A stretch of DNA of 45,334 bases, taken from the IMG/VR virus record IMGVR_UViG_2663763534_000006, one strand, 5' to 3'. Origin of the DNA: a virus (taxonomy: Duplodnaviria > Heunggongvirae > Uroviricota > Caudoviricetes). A model generated the notes under the pieces. The model was not told the origin of the DNA and ran no database searches. It saw only the letters and a program-made list of their open reading frames with translations. The position numbers and the translations under genes are program-made. Below, piece by piece: positions 38,331 through 45,334 of this stretch (within the stretch, counting starts at the first letter, position 1; every line of letters starts with the position of its first letter).

Positions 38331-38930
38331 ATGCGTAAATTATGTGCTGTTATTCTGTCCGCAGTAGTCTGGCTGGTTGCCGCTGGTACGCCAGCGAGCG
38401 CAGCAGAGCATCAGTCCACACTAAGCGCCGGGTATCTTCAGACCCATACTGATATGCCAGGCAGTGATGACCTGAAGGGCATTAACGTGAAATACCGTTA
38501 TGAATTTACGGACACGCTGGGGCTGGTGACGTCATTCAGTTATGCCAATGCCAAAGATGAGCAAAAAACGCATTACAGCGATACCCGCTGGCATGAAGAT
38601 TCAGTGCGTAACCGCTGGTTCAGCATGATGGCGGGGCCATCTGTACGCGTGAATGAATGGTTCAGTGCTTATGCGATGGCAGGTGTGGCTTACAGCCGTG
38701 TTTCGACGTTCTCCGGGGATTATCTCCGCGTAACTGACAACAAGGGGAAAACGCACGATGTGCTGACCGGAAGTGATGATGATCGCCACAGCAACACGTC
38801 TCTGGCGTGGGGAGCTGGCGTGCAGTTTAACCCGACCGAATCCGTGGCCATTGATATTACTTATGAAGGCTCCGGCAGTGGTGACTGGCGCACTGACGGT
38901 TTCATCGTGGGTGTCGGTTATAAATTCTGA
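38331..38930 (+). CDS. lom: Lom outer-membrane protein (Ail/Lom family)
   Basis: 199-aa ORF with signal peptide and C-terminal ...GVGYKF beta-barrel terminus; lambda Lom-like. Confidence 0.9.
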   Translation: MRKLCAVILSAVVWLVAAGTPASAAEHQSTLSAGYLQTHTDMPGSDDLKGINVKYRYEFTDTLGLVTSFSYANAKDEQKTHYSDTRWHEDSVRNRWFSMMAGPSVRVNEWFSAYAMAGVAYSRVSTFSGDYLRVTDNKGKTHDVLTGSDDDRHSNTSLAWGAGVQFNPTESVAIDITYEGSGSGDWRTDGFIVGVGYKF

Positions 38931-38956: not shown

Positions 38957-38984
38957 AGCCCGCCGGTTCAGGCGGGCTTTTTTG
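38957..38984 (+). terminator. Intrinsic terminator after lom
   Basis: Hairpin AGCCCGCCggttcagGCGGGCT followed by TTTTTTG. Confidence 0.5.
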
Positions 38985-38988
38985 TGGA

Positions 38989-41373
38989 GTGGATATGGCA
39001 GCAGTAAAAATCTCAGGTGTGCTGAAAGATGGTGCGGGAAAACCAATACAGAACTGCACTATTCAACTGAAGGCAAAGCGTAACAGCACCACGGTACTGG
39101 TGAACACGGTGGCTTCTGAAAATCCGGATGAAGCCGGACGTTACAGCATGGATGTTGAGTATGGCCAGTACAGCGTCACCCTGCTGGTTGAAGGTTTTCC
39201 GCCTTCACATGCCGGGACCATTACCGTCTATGAAGGTTCCAGACCAGGTACGCTGAATGATTTTCTCGGTGCCATGACGGAAGATGATGTCATGCCGGAG
39301 GCATTGCGCCGTTTTGAGGAAATGGTGGAAGAAGCGGCACGCAACGCCGAAGCCGCCTCTCAGAGCGCAGCGGCGGCAAAGAAATCCGAAACTGCAGCGG
39401 CATCATCGAAGAACGCGGCGAAAACCTCAGAAACGAATGCAGCTAACAGCGCACAGGCGGCAGCGACCTCACAGACTGCATCGGCAAACTCCGCGACAGC
39501 AGCCAAAAAATCAGAAACCAACGCGAAAAACAGCGAGACAGCCGCAAAGACGAGCGAAACCAACGCAAAGTCCAGCCAGACGGCAGCGAAGACCAGCGAA
39601 ACGAATGCCAAAGCCAGTGAAACTGCGGCAAAAAACAGCCAGGTTGCAGCAGCCCAAAGCGAGAGCGCGGCAGCTGGTTCTGCGACTTCAGCAGCTGGAT
39701 CAGCAACTGCTGCGGCTAACAGCCAGAAAGCTGCGAAGACGAGTGAAACTAACGCAAAGTCCAGCCAGACGGCAGCGAAGACCAGCGAAACGAATGCCAA
39801 AGCCAGTGAAACTGCGGCGAAAAACAGTCAGGATGCTGCAGCCCAAAGCGAGAGTGCCGCAGCTGGTTCTGCAAGTGCGGCGGCTTCTTCTGCCACTGCA
39901 TCAGCCAACAGTCAAAAAGCTGCAAAAACCAGTGAAACCAACGCAAAGGCGAGCGAGACTGCGGCGGCTAACTCGGCGAAAGCATCCGCTGCAAGCCAGA
40001 CGGCTGCAAAAGCAAGTGAAGACGCAGCCAGAGAGTATGCAAGCCAGGCTGCGGAGCCGTATAAACAAGTTTTGCAGCCGCTTCCCGATGTGTGGATACC
40101 GTTTAACGATTCACTGGATATGATTACGGGCTTTTCGCCATCATATAAAAAGATTGTTATTGGCGACGACGAAATAACGATGCCTGGTGACAAGGTTGTT
40201 AAGTTTAAACGCGCATCGAAAGCAACCTATATTAATAAATCTGGTGTACTGACAGAGGCTGCCATTGACGAGCCGCGATTTGAACGTGATGGCCTGCTTA
40301 TTGAGGGGCAAAGAACTAATCTTCTGCTTAATTCAACAAATCCATCTAAATGGAATAAGTCAGGCAATCTGGAACTCACAGAAATATCCACGGATTCTTT
40401 TAATTTTACTTATGGGAGATTTACTGTAAAAGATACTCTTATTGATCAGACAAGTGCGATTAATATCGTAACGGTTTCTGGCAGTAAAGGATTTGATGTC
40501 ACAGGTGATGAAAAATATGTGACCATTTCATGCCGTGTCAGAAGTGATGTTGAAAATATAAGGTGTCGTTTAAGATTTGAACATCATGATGGTTCTACTT
40601 ACACTTTTTTGGGAGATGCTTACCTCAATTTATCAACACTTGTAATTGATAAGACTGGTGGTGCAGCAAATCGTATTATTGCAAAGGCTGTAAAAGATGA
40701 GGCTACTGGTTGGATTTTCTATCAGGCTACAATTAATGCACTAGATACAGAGAGCATGATTGGTGCGATGGTTCAATATGCTCCAGTAAAAGGTTCAGGC
40801 ACAGCATCTGGAGACTATCTGGATATCGCAACTCCACAAGTGGAAGGTGGATCAAGTGCTTCGTCATTTATTGTAACTGATATAATTGCAAGCACTCGCG
40901 CAAGCGATATGGTGACAGTCCCAATCAAGAATAACCTTTATAATCTTCCTTTTACAGTTCTTTGTGAGGTACATAAGAACTGGTATAAAACGCCAAATGC
41001 AGCACCGCGTGTTTTTGATACCGGCGGTCATCAAACCGGAGCGGCTATTATTCTTGGCTTCGGTCGTTCAACAGATTACGACGGATTTCCTTATTGCGAT
41101 ATAGGTTTGGCTAACAGACGGGTAAACGAAAACGCATCGCTTGAAAAAATGGTTATGGGGATGCGTGTAAAGTCAGATCAGTCTACGTGCTCAGTAAGTA
41201 ACGGGCGTATATCCAGCGAAAAGAAAGCCACATGGTCCTATATTCAGAACACCGCAATTATCCGTATTGGAGGCCAGACTACAGCCGGGTTGCGTCATTT
41301 ATTTGGTCATGTCAGGAATTTCAGAATATGGCACAAGGCATTGACTGATGCTCAGGTGGGGGAGTCAATCTAA
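38989..41373 (+). CDS. stf: Side tail fibre with divergent C-terminal distal domain
   Basis: 794-aa ORF; N-terminus (MAVKISGVLKDGAGKPIQNCTIQLKAKRNSTTV...) matches lambda Stf, followed by an Ala/Ser/Thr/Lys-rich repeat shaft and an AT-rich C-terminal about 400 aa unlike lambda Stf. Confidence 0.85.
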   Translation: MDMAAVKISGVLKDGAGKPIQNCTIQLKAKRNSTTVLVNTVASENPDEAGRYSMDVEYGQYSVTLLVEGFPPSHAGTITVYEGSRPGTLNDFLGAMTEDDVMPEALRRFEEMVEEAARNAEAASQSAAAAKKSETAAASSKNAAKTSETNAANSAQAAATSQTASANSATAAKKSETNAKNSETAAKTSETNAKSSQTAAKTSETNAKASETAAKNSQVAAAQSESAAAGSATSAAGSATAAANSQKAAKTSETNAKSSQTAAKTSETNAKASETAAKNSQDAAAQSESAAAGSASAAASSATASANSQKAAKTSETNAKASETAAANSAKASAASQTAAKASEDAAREYASQAAEPYKQVLQPLPDVWIPFNDSLDMITGFSPSYKKIVIGDDEITMPGDKVVKFKRASKATYINKSGVLTEAAIDEPRFERDGLLIEGQRTNLLLNSTNPSKWNKSGNLELTEISTDSFNFTYGRFTVKDTLIDQTSAINIVTVSGSKGFDVTGDEKYVTISCRVRSDVENIRCRLRFEHHDGSTYTFLGDAYLNLSTLVIDKTGGAANRIIAKAVKDEATGWIFYQATINALDTESMIGAMVQYAPVKGSGTASGDYLDIATPQVEGGSSASSFIVTDIIASTRASDMVTVPIKNNLYNLPFTVLCEVHKNWYKTPNAAPRVFDTGGHQTGAAIILGFGRSTDYDGFPYCDIGLANRRVNENASLEKMVMGMRVKSDQSTCSVSNGRISSEKKATWSYIQNTAIIRIGGQTTAGLRHLFGHVRNFRIWHKALTDAQVGESI
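39540..39960 (+). repeat. Tandem direct repeat (about 189-bp unit, 2 or more copies) within the stf shaft
   Basis: Near-identical DNA segments beginning about 39544 and 39734; the protein motif KTSETNAKSSQTAAKTSETNAKASETAAKNSQ.AAAQSESAAAGSA occurs twice. Confidence 0.6.
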
Positions 41374-41654
41374 TGAAAGATTTAACACTCAAATTTGCCG
41401 ACAGGGCCGACTTTTCGGCCTTTATGGAGAGTGCCGGCTATTATGATGACGAGTCGATGCAGGATGATATTCTTATTGACGTGATAGGTAACGTGTACAA
41501 AGAAACCGGAGAACTTACCGAAGATGGCGAGCCGGTATGTGTTAAGGAAGACGGATATTTTGTAAACGTGCGCATCATTAATGATGCAAAAAAATCGTCA
41601 ATATTCGATGAATACGTGGTTGCTGTTGAGCATCAACTTCGTGGCTGGATGTGA
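41373..41654 (+). CDS. Hypothetical small acidic protein after stf (possible fibre assembly/accessory protein)
   Basis: 93-aa ORF overlapping the stf stop; not obviously lambda Tfa-like; position suggests a fibre accessory role. Confidence 0.45.
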   Translation: MKDLTLKFADRADFSAFMESAGYYDDESMQDDILIDVIGNVYKETGELTEDGEPVCVKEDGYFVNVRIINDAKKSSIFDEYVVAVEHQLRGWM

Positions 41655-41663
41655 GGAAGAAAA

Positions 41664-42704
41664 ATGGCTACATCGACAGTAATTCCTGAAGACATCAAAA
41701 CGCTAAAATCCGACGTTAGCAAATTAAAAAACGATCAAGGAAGCTACGCAACAAAATCATATGTAGACAATAAAACAACATGGAATAGTTATTGCAATGT
41801 AATCTATGATCAAAAGACATTGCCGACCACTGGAACTATATTTAGCGGTAAGATTCACTTGTCAAATAAGACAGGAGAAACCGAAAACGCTTATAGTGAG
41901 ATGTACACTAGAAAAAATATTGACGGTACAAAAGATACAATGACAAGGATTGTCACACACAATGGAACAAAAGGTATCTTTTGGGATTTTAGCGATCTTT
42001 ACGGTGGAACATTAATTTTTCCAGGCAGTGATGGTTACCTTAAGATGGGGAACTGTCTCATGTCGTATGGTGTGCGGGGAAGTAACGCGCTTATTAAGTT
42101 TGACTGCACAGACACATTACAAATCAAATATGCCAATCATGGGTCAACCATGACAATCAACACACAGGGAACCGCTCATTCTGGCGCTACTACTAGTTTG
42201 TGGGGTAACTCTACCCGTCCGGTTGTATATGAAGTTGGTGCTGATGGTGGCGCTTATATGTTCTATGCGCAGAAAAATACCGATAACACCTATATGTTAA
42301 GCGTTAATGGTGCATGTCATGCCACCGCATTTAACCAGCATTCCGACCGGGATCTGAAAGACAACATTCAGGTGATCGATAATGCAACCGACCGCATCCG
42401 TAAAATGAACGGCTATACATACACGCTTAAAGAAAACGGTATGCCCTATGCTGGTGTCATTGCACAGGAAGCTCTGGAAGCAATCCCAGAAGTTGTAGGT
42501 TCCGCAATGAAATATCAGGACGGTGCAAGCGGATCGGAAGGTGAAGAAGGTGAACGTTATTACACAGTAGATTATTCTGGTGTTACTGGCTTGCTTGTTC
42601 AGGTAGCCAGAGAGTCAGACGACAGAATAACAGCACTGGAAGAAGAAAACGCAGAATTAAGACAAAGATTATCTGCAATTGAGGCGGCGCTTGCGTCTAA
42701 ATAA
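41664..42704 (+). CDS. Tail fibre/tailspike-like protein with C-terminal intramolecular chaperone (S74-like) domain
   Basis: 346-aa ORF; C-terminal region (HSDRDLKDNIQVIDNATDRIRKMNGYTYTLKE ... coiled-coil ITALEEENAELRQRLSAIEAALASK) resembles the auto-cleaving chaperone domain of endosialidase and L-shaped tail fibres. Confidence 0.65.
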   Translation: MATSTVIPEDIKTLKSDVSKLKNDQGSYATKSYVDNKTTWNSYCNVIYDQKTLPTTGTIFSGKIHLSNKTGETENAYSEMYTRKNIDGTKDTMTRIVTHNGTKGIFWDFSDLYGGTLIFPGSDGYLKMGNCLMSYGVRGSNALIKFDCTDTLQIKYANHGSTMTINTQGTAHSGATTSLWGNSTRPVVYEVGADGGAYMFYAQKNTDNTYMLSVNGACHATAFNQHSDRDLKDNIQVIDNATDRIRKMNGYTYTLKENGMPYAGVIAQEALEAIPEVVGSAMKYQDGASGSEGEEGERYYTVDYSGVTGLLVQVARESDDRITALEEENAELRQRLSAIEAALASK

Positions 42705-42710
42705 TATTAA

Positions 42711-42732
42711 GGGGCCGAGCGCCCCGTTTTAT
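42711..42732 (+). terminator. Intrinsic terminator after the fibre gene
   Basis: Hairpin GGGGCcgagcGCCCC followed by GTTTTATT. Confidence 0.45.
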
Positions 42733-42740
42733 TGGGTAGG

Positions 42741-43040
42741 ATGAAAATGGATATAACACCTTTCCTTCATGCGCTTTGTGCTGTGGCTGCGCAGCTACTG
42801 ATTGGTCTTTTTACCGGGAACTGGGCTTACGGGGCGATAGCCGGTTGTACGTTCTTCATTGCGCGGGAACACACCCAGGCAGAATATCGCTGGATTGAAA
42901 TGTTCGGGCATGGCAAGCGAATGAATATGCCGTGGTGGGGCGGTTTTGATCCGCGCGCGTGGGATGTGGCAAGCCTTATGGATTTTGCTGTACCGATGGT
43001 GGCGTGTCTGCTGGTCTGGCTGTTGGTTTATCGAGGGTGA
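42741..43040 (+). CDS. Small hydrophobic membrane protein
   Basis: About 99-aa ORF from the ATG giving MKMDITPFLHALCAVAAQLLIGLF...; two or three predicted TM segments. Confidence 0.5.
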   Translation: MKMDITPFLHALCAVAAQLLIGLFTGNWAYGAIAGCTFFIAREHTQAEYRWIEMFGHGKRMNMPWWGGFDPRAWDVASLMDFAVPMVACLLVWLLVYRG

Positions 43041-43173: not shown

Positions 43174-43200
43174 AATATCCCCTGCGATGCAGGGGATATT
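43174..43200. repeat. Perfect 12-bp inverted repeat with 3-nt spacer, downstream of sopB
   Basis: AATATCCCCTGC gat GCAGGGGATATT, followed on the plus strand by TCTTAATT; candidate bidirectional terminator or partition-protein binding site. Confidence 0.5.
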
Positions 43201-43202
43201 TC

Positions 43203-44168
43203 TTAATTATCAGTAGATTGTTCCTCTAGTAACAACTCAATTCTGCTTAGTATTTCTTTAGATATTTTTCGGCTATCAATTTTTATAGTTACAAAATTAC
43301 CTTTATATCTAGCCGTGATCCCTTCCCCATATTTTTTCTCGTCTTTTGTTTTTTCCTCGTCGCCAACCAGAACAGAGTCAGATAATATTTGTATAATCCG
43401 TGAAGCTTCTAAATCCTCGCCGTTTTTTTTAATTGCCAGAAGATGATGAGCAGCATTGCTCATGGCAGCCATGTTTTTTTTGTAGACCTTAAACAAAGAA
43501 TCTCCAGCACGAGCTGACAGTTCTCCTGGATGATTGAAGATAGCTAATATATCTTTTGGTAGACCAGCTGTATTAATACAGCGAGTGATAATATTTCTGT
43601 CTATATTTTCAGCCTCGGCTAATGCTTTAACGTTACCATCAAAGTCATTTAGCTTGCGTAAGTATCTCTTTCCTCTTTCGTATGCACTAATAGGCCTATA
43701 ATCGTTACCAATTTGGGATAACCAATGCATCTGTTCATCGTCGAGATCACCTATTAAGACGCGATAGTCACATCCTGTTAATATCGCTGCTTTTCTTCTA
43801 CGTGAGCCGTCAGCGACTTCAACGACTCCAGACACTTTTCTGGCGAAAGCTGGATTTTGTTGTCCAGACGTTAGAAAAGATGGGATTAAATCGGCTAGAG
43901 AGGATTCATTTAATAAATCTTGATCGCGTTCATTACCTAGCCATACCATTGTTGCCATTTCAACTTTATCTGCGGGAATTGTCTCTAACTTAAAGTTAAC
44001 ATTACGTCCGCATACTGGCAAAGTTATGCTGTTACCGGTTAATGAACTCAGTTGACGTTTTAAATCACCAACCATAGGTGATACGGGCTGATGTTCAGGG
44101 GCATGATGATTATTACTCATAATGCGATTAATATCTGGAGCATTTTTTAGAAGAGAGCGCTGTTTCAT
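43203..44168 (-). CDS. sopB: ParB-type partition protein (F-plasmid SopB-like)
   Basis: 321-aa ORF with ITLPVCGR...WLGNERDQ...SGVVEVADGSRRRKAA...ITRCINTA segments matching F SopB by recall; co-directional with and downstream of sopA. Confidence 0.85.
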   Translation of the reverse strand: MKQRSLLKNAPDINRIMSNNHHAPEHQPVSPMVGDLKRQLSSLTGNSITLPVCGRNVNFKLETIPADKVEMATMVWLGNERDQDLLNESSLADLIPSFLTSGQQNPAFARKVSGVVEVADGSRRRKAAILTGCDYRVLIGDLDDEQMHWLSQIGNDYRPISAYERGKRYLRKLNDFDGNVKALAEAENIDRNIITRCINTAGLPKDILAIFNHPGELSARAGDSLFKVYKKNMAAMSNAAHHLLAIKKNGEDLEASRIIQILSDSVLVGDEEKTKDEKKYGEGITARYKGNFVTIKIDSRKISKEILSRIELLLEEQSTDN

Positions 44169-45334
44169 TATTCGTTCTCCCAGCGAGGTTTTATTAGATC
44201 ATCAAAAATTTCTCGGCAAACAGGGTCCCATATAGAAACAGCATTTCTCCATGCATTCAATGTTGAACGTTGGTTTGCTGCTTGTTCAAATACTGTTCTC
44301 ATTTTTATCTGGCCTTTACCTACTTCATCGGTAACGCGTACAACCTGACGTAATACCATTGATCCCCATGTATTTCTTATTTGTTCTTCCATCCATCGTG
44401 ATTGATTCCCTGTAGTGAGACTATATTTAGTCAGAAGTAAGCGAACGGTTGGCTCAAATCCACCTAGGTCAACGCTTTCCAATAGATCGAGAAGCATTGT
44501 GAAAAACTGTAGAACAGAAGCGTAATCAAATAATTCTGCAGGTGTAGCAACAACAATAACGTCAGCGGCACAAACAACGTTAATGGTTCCTGTACCGAGG
44601 TTCGGAGCACTATCTATAACGATAACATCGTAGTTATCCCAAACTGATTCAATAGCTGCGCGCAGCATAAGGTGTGGAGGATGAGGCAATTTACCCTGAG
44701 CATGATATTGCATGAGATCTGTTTCTATACGATGTAAAGCTAGGCAGCTAGGGATAATGTCTAGCCCAGGCCAACATGTTGGCTTTATAGCATATTCAGC
44801 GTTATCGCGTTCTCCTAAGTAAAATGGCAGTAAAGTATCCTCGGCATGGATATGTAAATCAGGAACATAACCGTGATACATAGAGGCCGTGCCTTGAGGA
44901 TCGTTACCTTCAACCAAAAGAACACGATGACCTTGTAATGCTAACCATTGAGCTTGATGTACCGCAGACGATGTTTTATAAACACCGCCTTTGTGTGACA
45001 TAACGGCAAGCACAACAGGGTTTTTATCTTGTGGTCGTTGGTTTGGGTTGCCAAAAACTGCTCGCATACTGTTGATTTGATCTATGGTATAACCAGCACG
45101 ACGTTCAATTCTTCCTCTCATTTCAAAGTCAGGTGCAGGTAAACGCCCGCTCTTCTCAGCATCTCTAATTGCTTGAGGAGTTACACCAATTAAATCTGCT
45201 ACTTCAGTTATACCCCATCGGCGGGTGATACGCCGAGCTTCAGGACTATCATCACCGAATTGAGCGATAGCAATTGCTTGGGTCATTTCTTGACCTCTCG
45301 TAACACAATCTTGCAATAACTTTTTCAAAGACAT
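44168..45334 (-). CDS. sopA: ParA-type partition ATPase (F-plasmid SopA-like)
   Basis: 388-aa ORF with deviant Walker A KGGVYKTS and long F SopA-like stretches (LLVEGNDPQGTASMYHG, IKPTCWPGLDIIPSCLALHRIET, YDVIVIDSAPNLG); start codon is the last 3 nt of the window. Confidence 0.9.
   Translation of the reverse strand: MSLKKLLQDCVTRGQEMTQAIAIAQFGDDSPEARRITRRWGITEVADLIGVTPQAIRDAEKSGRLPAPDFEMRGRIERRAGYTIDQINSMRAVFGNPNQRPQDKNPVVLAVMSHKGGVYKTSSAVHQAQWLALQGHRVLLVEGNDPQGTASMYHGYVPDLHIHAEDTLLPFYLGERDNAEYAIKPTCWPGLDIIPSCLALHRIETDLMQYHAQGKLPHPPHLMLRAAIESVWDNYDVIVIDSAPNLGTGTINVVCAADVIVVATPAELFDYASVLQFFTMLLDLLESVDLGGFEPTVRLLLTKYSLTTGNQSRWMEEQIRNTWGSMVLRQVVRVTDEVGKGQIKMRTVFEQAANQRSTLNAWRNAVSIWDPVCREIFDDLIKPRWENE

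Follow-up and report, generated by a model that had tools for sequence, protein, structure and literature searches.

The question raised by the DNA considered here, a stretch of 45,334 nucleotides from a tailed virus of the class Caudoviricetes (IMG/VR virus record IMGVR_UViG_2663763534_000006; hereafter, the window), is what kind of host-recognition device is encoded by its side-tail-fibre genes, which begin in the manner of phage lambda and continue in another, and whether the small membrane protein gene that follows them belongs to the same unit. The answer that we consider probable is a modular side-tail-fibre cassette built of a chimeric Stf, a 93-aa partner protein, and a second fibre bearing an N-terminal anchor and an S74 intramolecular chaperone domain, with the membrane protein lying outside the cassette. 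The features of the cassette are as follows, in positions of the window.

38989..41373, + strand: stf, the gene of the long side tail fibre, 794 aa (open reading frame; full-length match to phrog_1419, 'tail protein'; 86% identical to Stf of phage Tritos)
39001..39390, + strand: N-terminal tail-attachment domain, Stf residues 5–134 (Pfam PF08400, phage_tail_N, E 7e-67; similar to lambda orf-401)
39391..40071, + strand: Stf shaft rich in Ala, Ser, and Thr (Tandem Repeats Finder; similar to lambda orf-401 up to residue 331)
40072..40338, + strand: conserved junction box, Stf residues 362–450 (LQPLPDVWIPFNDSLDMITG...; cross-lineage identity and BLAST breakpoints)
40339..40878, + strand: hypervariable beta-sandwich, Stf residues 451–630, a predicted glycan-binding receptor-binding domain (NF048003, 6tb9, AlphaFold, Foldseek)
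40879..41373, + strand: C-terminal domain of Stf, residues 631–794, occurring in two allelic types (identity comparison across loci)
41373..41654, + strand: acidic 93-aa protein with an isoelectric point of 4.2, the constant partner of the Stf distal module (phrog_1361; TAATG overlap; synteny)
41664..42704, + strand: short second fibre of 346 aa with a C-terminal S74 intramolecular chaperone (full-length match to phrog_4563, 'tail fiber protein'; Pfam PF13884)
41664..41756, + strand: N-terminal anchor motif (MATSTVIPEDIKTLKSD) and short coiled coil, residues 1–31 of the second fibre (motif comparison over second fibres of four body types in six phage groups; helix in the model)
41757..42008, + strand: hypervariable segment of the second fibre, residues 32–115 (allele identities; gap in DNA identity)
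42009..42341, + strand: shaft or tip segment related to the C-terminal repeats of T4 gp34 (profile search against PDB)
42342..42701, + strand: S74 intramolecular chaperone domain followed by a C-terminal helix (Pfam; homologue alignment; checked translation)

The three fibre genes and a membrane protein frame ending at 43040 were found where the first-pass annotation of this DNA had placed them, and all four proteins have full-length matches in PHROG. The same annotation had described the sequence as AT-rich from about 40.0 kb, and indeed the fraction of G and C (GC) falls from 0.52–0.57 to 0.36–0.46 across ~40.0–42.6 kb and is again 0.50 over the membrane gene. The stop codon of stf and the start codon of the 93-aa gene overlap as TAATG, and the 346-aa gene, preceded by a GAGGAAG site, starts 9 nt past the 93-aa stop; with this overlap and spacing, the three genes are tightly coupled. 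Cassettes of ~93% identical DNA are carried by phages Tritos, 2G7b, HannyBb, and PhiR63_1 and by plasmid pG749_3, where the same four genes stand in the same order and encode proteins 80–98% identical to those described here. The differences from these cassettes lie mainly in Stf residues 451–630 (~52% identity to Tritos) and in residues 32–115 of the second fibre.

Stf itself is a chimera: up to residue 362 it consists of a lambda-type attachment domain and a shaft rich in repeats, and from there of an exchangeable module of ~430 aa. The lambda-like character of the N-terminus and shaft, already noticed at first reading, is confirmed by the PF08400 match and by 59% identity between Stf residues 5–331 and lambda orf-401; past residue 331, no match to lambda orf-401, orf-314, or Tfa was found, in agreement with the view that the C-terminal part does not resemble lambda Stf. 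Lambda and this phage thus share the attachment domain and the shaft, but here there is neither a gp37-like tip nor a Tfa gene. The shaft contains a tandem repeat of 189 nt (63 aa) present in 2.3 copies at 39529–39966, with heptad-like sub-repeats of 21 and 42 nt. This repeat makes up much of the length by which Stf exceeds its counterpart in phage 21 (686 aa), and the many antisense open reading frames listed over the shaft are artefacts of the repeat composition.

Similarity to the fibres of T5-like, 9g-like, and phage 21-type viruses sets in abruptly at codon 362 (nt 40072, LQPLPDVWIPFNDSL), and the BLAST breakpoints fall at nt 40073–40075 in three phage groups alike. The junction box that begins there is 71–100% identical in all lineages compared and matches the N-terminus of free-standing homologues from Comamonas. 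It is the recombination point at which the exchangeable distal module starts. The module is also mounted on T5-LtfA-like, P2-H-like, rV5-like, T1-like, and 9g-like fibres. A sharp 5′ breakpoint at nt 40072–40075 and the presence of the same module on the fibres of several phage groups bear out the proposal of a horizontally exchanged receptor-binding module.

The distal module is the equivalent of a free-standing receptor-binding protein of the kind represented by the head spike fibre of the Rhodobacter gene transfer agent (RcGTA), and it consists of a conserved N-terminal connector, a hypervariable beta-sandwich similar to carbohydrate-binding modules (CBM), and a C-terminal domain of one of two types. 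The NCBIfam family NF048003 (GTA_spike_fiber) matches Stf 437–638 with E 2e-15 and 57.9 bits, against a cut-off of 36, and Rcc01080 (PDB 6tb9) matches the distal module over Stf residues ~406–653 with E 1e-4 when searched as a single sequence and 5e-7 when searched as a profile. Rcc01080 is a free-standing decoration of the head, whereas in Stf the domain continues a tail-fibre shaft, to which it is fused, and a further domain of ~155 aa comes after it. When the distal 444 aa of Stf were modelled with AlphaFold as a monomer, the predicted local distance difference test score (pLDDT) reached 80–95 in the variable beta-sandwich only, so that the structure prediction recommended by the first-pass annotation gave a confident fold for residues 451–630. 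Foldseek neighbours of this domain include fibres of the Pseudomonas phages Pa193 and E217, CBM4/6/22/30, and legume lectins.

Variation is concentrated in the same domain: residues 451–630 share 30–55% identity among Stf proteins that are otherwise 97–100% identical. The alleles are shuffled as in a mosaic, and variable domains of the identity classes 1.0, 0.5, and 0.3 occur with both types of the Stf C-terminal domain and with all alleles of the second fibre. The C-terminal domain (residues 631–794) of the type found here is 77–100% identical in Tritos, ESCO3, FGS017, L007, and L008 (about 93%), and the type found in phage 21 is ~44% identical. No sequence match to the C-terminal domain was found in PDB, and a guess that the Stf C-terminus (ending in ...RIWHKALTD) might be LamG-like was followed by no LamG match in Pfam, the region not being resolved by AlphaFold.

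Rcc01080 binds capsular polysaccharide in Rhodobacter (PMC10218006), and for this reason the variable domain of Stf most likely binds a surface glycan (O-antigen, lipopolysaccharide, or capsule). The DNA of the window at 40073–41396 is 91.5% identical to the lateral-fibre gene of the T5-like phage vB_Si_CECAV_FGS017, isolated on Salmonella Infantis, and over residues 451–630, the identity of the proteins is 97–100%. Such identity indicates a recent exchange between phage families and, possibly, a receptor shared by E. coli and Salmonella. Prophages of Comamonas and Pantoea (loci L109, L112, L114, and L117) encode free-standing proteins of 388–402 aa with the GTA spike fibre domain; the gene order there is a 250-aa fibre-like protein, the free-standing spike-fibre protein, a small protein weakly related to the 93-aa family, and the membrane protein. 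The gene neighbourhood of the cassette thus recurs in Betaproteobacteria.

The small protein encoded next, translationally coupled to Stf, would take the place of Tfa and is most likely a fibre assembly factor or adaptor. That a 93-aa protein stands here rather than a lambda-type Tfa was stated in the first-pass annotation and agrees with the lack of similarity to lambda Tfa and with the absence of Caudo_TAP from the genes of the window in a Pfam search. No match to the 93-aa protein was found in Pfam or NCBIfam. Its family comprises 181 phage records, with a tail-fibre gene adjoining in every record listed, and it follows the distal module at every locus examined, whether lambdoid, T1-, T5-, 9g-, rV5-, or P2-like, being present also where the second fibre is absent (phage 21, ev243, and rV5-like phages). 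A weak relative is encoded downstream of the free-standing spike-fibre proteins of Comamonas (hhalign E 5e-4, probability 33%).

The third gene of the cassette would encode a short trimeric fibre composed of a 16-residue anchor with a coiled coil, a hypervariable segment, a gp34-like shaft and tip, and an S74 domain. The proposal that the protein ends in an auto-chaperone domain has held up well. Pfam Peptidase_S74 (PF13884) aligns positions 1–57 of its profile with residues 227–278 (E 6e-14, 52.5 bits against a cut-off of 22), starting exactly at Ser227, and a long helix, residues 304–345, is predicted at the C-terminus. The Ser–Lys context, on whose presence the proposal had been made to depend, is intact: the translation reads H-S-D-R-D-L-K-D-N, with the codon of Ser227 at 42342–42344 and that of Lys232 at 42357–42359, the motif S-D-R-D/E-L-K is near-invariant (at least 90% conserved positions in 40 homologues), and S227-D-R-D-L-K232 aligns with SSDRRIK of S16 gp37 (6f45). 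We take S227 and K232 to be the Ser/Lys dyad, an assignment transferred from S911/K916 of endoNF. The sequence evidence thus supports a second fibre with an S74 intramolecular chaperone domain, which would drive trimer folding and then cut itself off at Ser227 to leave a fibre of ~226 aa.

The protein resembles K1F endosialidase, T5 pb1, and S16 gp37 in the PF13884 domain, in the Ser-x4-Lys context, and in the C-terminal position of S74 after a fibre shaft, but as a carrier of S74 it is unusually short and has no virion-attachment domain beyond the 16-residue motif. In a profile search against PDB, residues ~170–226 match T4 gp34 (4uxe, 5nxf) with E 1e-8, the shared motif being WG..R..V.EVG...FY.Q.N. 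The segment of residues 32–115 is ~37% identical in proteins that are otherwise 80–100% identical, and the DNA identity to plasmid pG749_3 is interrupted at 41769–41982. Structure prediction, also recommended in the first-pass annotation, succeeded here in part: the AlphaFold monomer shows the C-terminal helix and a helix at residues 9–23, and Foldseek searches with the model returned meaningless matches save for a weak resemblance to T4 gp34. The poor quality of the monomer model is what an intertwined trimer would lead one to expect.

More than 200 homologues of the 346-aa protein were found. Of the lambdoid loci that encode this small protein, roughly one in two (e.g., IMG/VR L031 and L024) have an alternative of 227–234 aa in place of the 346-aa fibre. 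Its anchor is unchanged, its coiled coil is longer, hardly any body is left, and its S74-like domain shows the variant motif S-S-I-R-Y-K; the protein is 57% identical to the third gene product of the Drexlerviridae phage swan01 (L012:3194-3868).

How might the second fibre, with so short an N-terminus, be attached to the virion? The motif M[AV]TxTxIPxDI[KT]xLK makes up the first 16 residues of the product of every gene examined downstream of the small protein, in six phage groups. The bodies that follow it are diverse and include the 346-aa type, the minimal 224–234-aa type, a 581-aa LtfB-like fibre in T5-like phages, a 388-aa protein in Seuratvirus, and a gp34-type fibre; in a P2-like prophage, the S74 body is replaced by the gp34-type fibre with its own Caudo_TAP chaperone, and the anchor is kept. 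The motif is present in 78/78 untruncated IMG/VR loci and in 10/10 cross-lineage loci, and it lies 10–90 nt downstream of the small gene in all 14 phage records common to both searches. The distal module and the small protein are the only tail parts common to the anchor-bearing phages, and the anchor should therefore find its partner in what they encode. This suggests that the second fibre docks on the shared module (on the distal part of Stf and/or on the 93-aa protein). With the anchor plugged into it, the side fibre would be branched and would carry two specificities, each exchangeable without the other. In lambdoids, whether a second fibre is present tracks the subtype of the small protein.

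A precedent is provided by the T5-like phages DT57C and DT571/2, for which branched fibres formed by LtfA and LtfB have been proposed (PMC4728585, PMC10713586). LtfA and LtfB each have their own receptor-binding domain and S74, and the N-terminus of the second fibre is attached to the first (PMC4728585, PMC10713586). The arrangement is alike in that a long tail-anchored fibre is combined with a shorter second fibre encoded downstream (PMC4728585, PMC10713586), and in the T5-like carrier FGS017, the body of the second fibre is homologous to LtfB and LtfA. The differences are, however, substantial: LtfA, unlike Stf here, has its own S74 domain and no GTA-spike-type module, LtfB begins with a sequence (MSRPLMPKSG...) that bears no relation to the anchor motif, and ltfA and ltfB are not separated by a small gene. 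A docking interface homologous to the N-terminal 45 aa of DT57C LtfB or phiEco32 gp15 was considered and rejected, the LtfB N-terminus being different and no N-terminal similarity being found by BLAST. The resemblance to DT57C is one of mechanism and not of a shared docking interface.

Phage 21 and ev243 illustrate a simpler arrangement, with a full-length Stf homologue (49–58% identity), a 92-aa protein (43–54%), a membrane protein (92–94%), and no gene for a second fibre; the C-terminal domain of Stf is of the other type in phage 21.

Several observations weigh against the proposed cassette and the branching of its fibres. The C-terminal domain of Stf, a candidate for the socket, is not required in this role, as anchored second fibres follow both of its types (~93% or ~44% identity). 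Both the module and the small protein are retained in phage 21, ev243, and rV5-like phages, which have no second fibre, and the small protein therefore cannot be solely an adaptor. The co-occurrence of the anchor with the small-protein subtype could be mere physical linkage. Both AlphaFold models are of monomers and are poor outside one domain, with a mean pLDDT of 59 for the 346-aa protein and values <35 for the connector and the C-terminal domain of Stf. The proposed glycan binding is deduced from fold similarity and from RcGTA (PMC10218006). Finally, the BASEL curators label the third gene 'putative lateral tail fiber chaperone', an opinion weighed below.

The membrane protein gene and the signals around it are placed as follows.

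42711..42725, + strand: weak terminator-like site separating the fibre genes from the membrane gene, a short GC hairpin with GTTTTATT after it (consensus scan; inspected sequence)
42747..43040, + strand: polytopic membrane protein of 97 aa, or 102 aa from TTG 42732 (phrog_1443, unknown function)
43174..43200, no strand assigned: bidirectional terminator-like hairpin with a 12-bp stem, between the fibre operon and the convergent parB/sopA (consensus scan)

The small protein with several membrane segments described in the first-pass annotation is indeed present, although its start should probably be moved from 42741: among the possible starts 42732, 42741, and 42747, ATG 42747 is the likeliest because it has an AGG Shine–Dalgarno-like site 6 nt upstream and fits the annotated 97-aa homologues. 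Hydrophobic segments are strong at residues 4–24 and 76–96 and weaker at 25–39. The protein is 92–98% identical in Tritos, phage 21, and ev243, of which the latter two lack the second fibre, and it is 90–100% identical over 80 loci, through all combinations of Stf variable domains, Stf C-terminal domains, and second-fibre alleles. Carriers of the cassette among Nonagvirus, T5-like phages, Drexlerviridae, and P2-like phages are without it. With this distribution, the gene belongs to the phage backbone and not to the cassette; in temperate phages, it is conserved as the gene that closes the fibre operon. A receptor-blocking role cognate to the cassette is not supported.

What the membrane protein does instead can be approached through its conservation. 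There are 562 close homologues, none of them named, and 438 clusters at 50% identity, all of single-domain proteins of 70–140 aa; no fusions or Pfam domains were found in remote relatives among the clusters tested, and the protein itself has no match in PADLOC, Pfam, or NCBIfam. The central loop AREHTQAEYRWI..FG.GKR.NMPWWGGFD is near-invariant from Escherichia to Comamonas and Aeromonas, the membrane segments vary, and H8, R40, E41, Q44, E46, D68, and D79 are invariant polar residues. Outside E. coli, the gene follows various fibre or tailspike genes in prophages, and homologues occur in non-prophage chromosomal contexts in Aeromonas and Silvania. A near-invariant loop in such varied contexts argues for a conserved target and against receptor-specific exclusion. 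By sequence, the protein resembles a small enzyme or a specific binder more closely than it does a holin or an exclusion protein.

Among the alternatives that bear on this locus, the one that survives best makes the membrane protein an accessory factor of lysis or of the envelope (holin-like, an antiholin, or a small membrane enzyme or binder), directed at a conserved envelope component and unconnected with host range; we regard it as rather unlikely, yet worth retaining. Its size of ~97 aa with two or three transmembrane segments would suit such a factor, the invariant polar residues suggest a defined site, and in a prophage of Comamonas kerstersii, the ~1.3 kb downstream of it encode a Peptidase_M15_4 endolysin as well as an Rz1-like lipoprotein. 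However, the Rz1 match is below the Pfam cut-off, the protein lacks the charged C-terminal tail typical of holins, and a family of 438 clusters has neither annotation nor any Pfam domain among those tested. Moreover, lambdoid phages of E. coli carry the S/R/Rz lysis genes elsewhere in the genome.

Less probable still is that the cassette contains a single receptor-binding protein, with the 346-aa protein (and its 227–234-aa allele) serving as a trans-acting chaperone for Stf trimerisation and the 93-aa protein as a co-chaperone. Stf has neither an intramolecular chaperone domain of its own nor a Tfa, the 224–234-aa alleles contain little beyond the anchor, the coiled coil, and the S74-like domain, and curators have given homologues the labels 'putative lateral tail fiber chaperone' and 'endosialidase chaperone'. 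Yet the shaft of the 346-aa protein is gp34-like, and its hypervariable segment is of a kind typical of receptor-binding proteins. Its slot is taken by an LtfB-type fibre of 581 aa in T5-like phages, and in P2-like prophages by a gp34-type fibre that has a Tfa chaperone of its own, and phage 21, ev243, and rV5-like phages assemble the same module without the 346-aa protein. In addition, characterised S74 domains, such as those of K1F endosialidase and T5 pb1, act in cis on their own polypeptide.

The least probable idea is that of the first-pass annotation, in which the membrane protein would be a cognate superinfection-exclusion gene acquired with the cassette and blocking the receptor of its fibres: such a role would suit a moron-like layout (the gene closes the fibre operon, is preceded by a weak terminator-like hairpin, and has a ribosome-binding site to itself), the occurrence of the family after fibre genes in temperate phages of several genera and its absence from virulent carriers of the cassette, and its recurrence after a GTA-spike-type fibre protein and a small protein in four Comamonas/Pantoea prophages, but it is made very doubtful by a sequence that stays 90–100% constant as the Stf and second-fibre alleles change in every combination, by a backbone-like GC content, by the absence of a PADLOC match, by a near-invariant loop that points to a conserved target rather than a variable receptor, and by homologues in non-prophage contexts and after unrelated fibres or tailspikes. 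The comparison with Cor of N15, phi80, and HK022 proved to be a loose analogy of position. Cor is a 78-aa lipoprotein with a signal peptide and a lipobox, and its gene does not occupy the place that the membrane gene has here with respect to the fibre genes: cor of N15 is gene 24 and precedes the fibre gene, and the neighbour of parB in N15 is a UmuD-like gene. A Cor-type assignment was rejected, the membrane protein having no BLAST similarity to N15 Cor and no lipobox and being polytopic.

As to the surroundings of the cassette, the gene lom (Ail/Lom, E 7e-127) occupies 38331–38930 between J and stf, as in lambda and ev243, and a strong terminator-like hairpin lies at 38957–38978 between lom and stf; in phage 21, the terminator is present, and lom is absent from this place. 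At its left end, in the integrase region, the window opens with a stop codon of the minus strand, and it ends exactly at the start codon of sopA. Its left 20.4 kb are 100% identical to the integrase-bearing lambdoid PhiR63_2, and its right end (43203–45334) carries parB/sopA of the N15 type, with 73% and 93% amino acid identity to N15 gp27/gp28, as in pG749_3. Phage 21 and PhiR63_2 have sitABCD in place of parB/sopA. Two readings are open for the window: a prophage of hybrid integrative/plasmid character, or a join, by recombination or in assembly, somewhere in the shared J–stf region.

The unit of a long fibre, a protein of ~92 aa, and a second fibre is found in lambdoid, T1-like, T5-like, 9g-like, and P2-like phages, and the families of the 346-aa protein and of the Stf tip each comprise hundreds to thousands of E. 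coli sequences. The cassette is an ordinary member of a widespread and catalogued class, one of the standard alternatives to lambda stf/tfa in lambdoid prophages. No description of it was found in the literature on Rcc01080 with coliphage fibres, on lambdoid side fibres with intramolecular chaperones, or on ECOR prophages. The only modestly new point is the architecture of the conserved anchor and the small protein. As a tentative extension, the anchor, the ~92-aa protein, and the GTA-spike-type module may form a universal plug and socket for interchangeable second fibres across unrelated siphovirus and myovirus tails (lambdoid, T1-, T5-, 9g-, and P2-like); separately, the membrane protein may found an unnamed family that ends the fibre operons of temperate phages and acts on a conserved envelope target. 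No description of such a plug-and-socket system was found in the literature searched.

The O-antigen or capsule types that a phage is able to overcome are set by its lateral-fibre cassettes, and a knowledge of module boundaries aids both the prediction of host range and its engineering. The practical handles offered by this locus are the recombination box at Stf residue 362 and two short hypervariable segments that hold the allelic diversity. A tempting cognate-exclusion annotation is removed from a very common prophage gene, and the short conserved anchor may suffice to mount a foreign second fibre.

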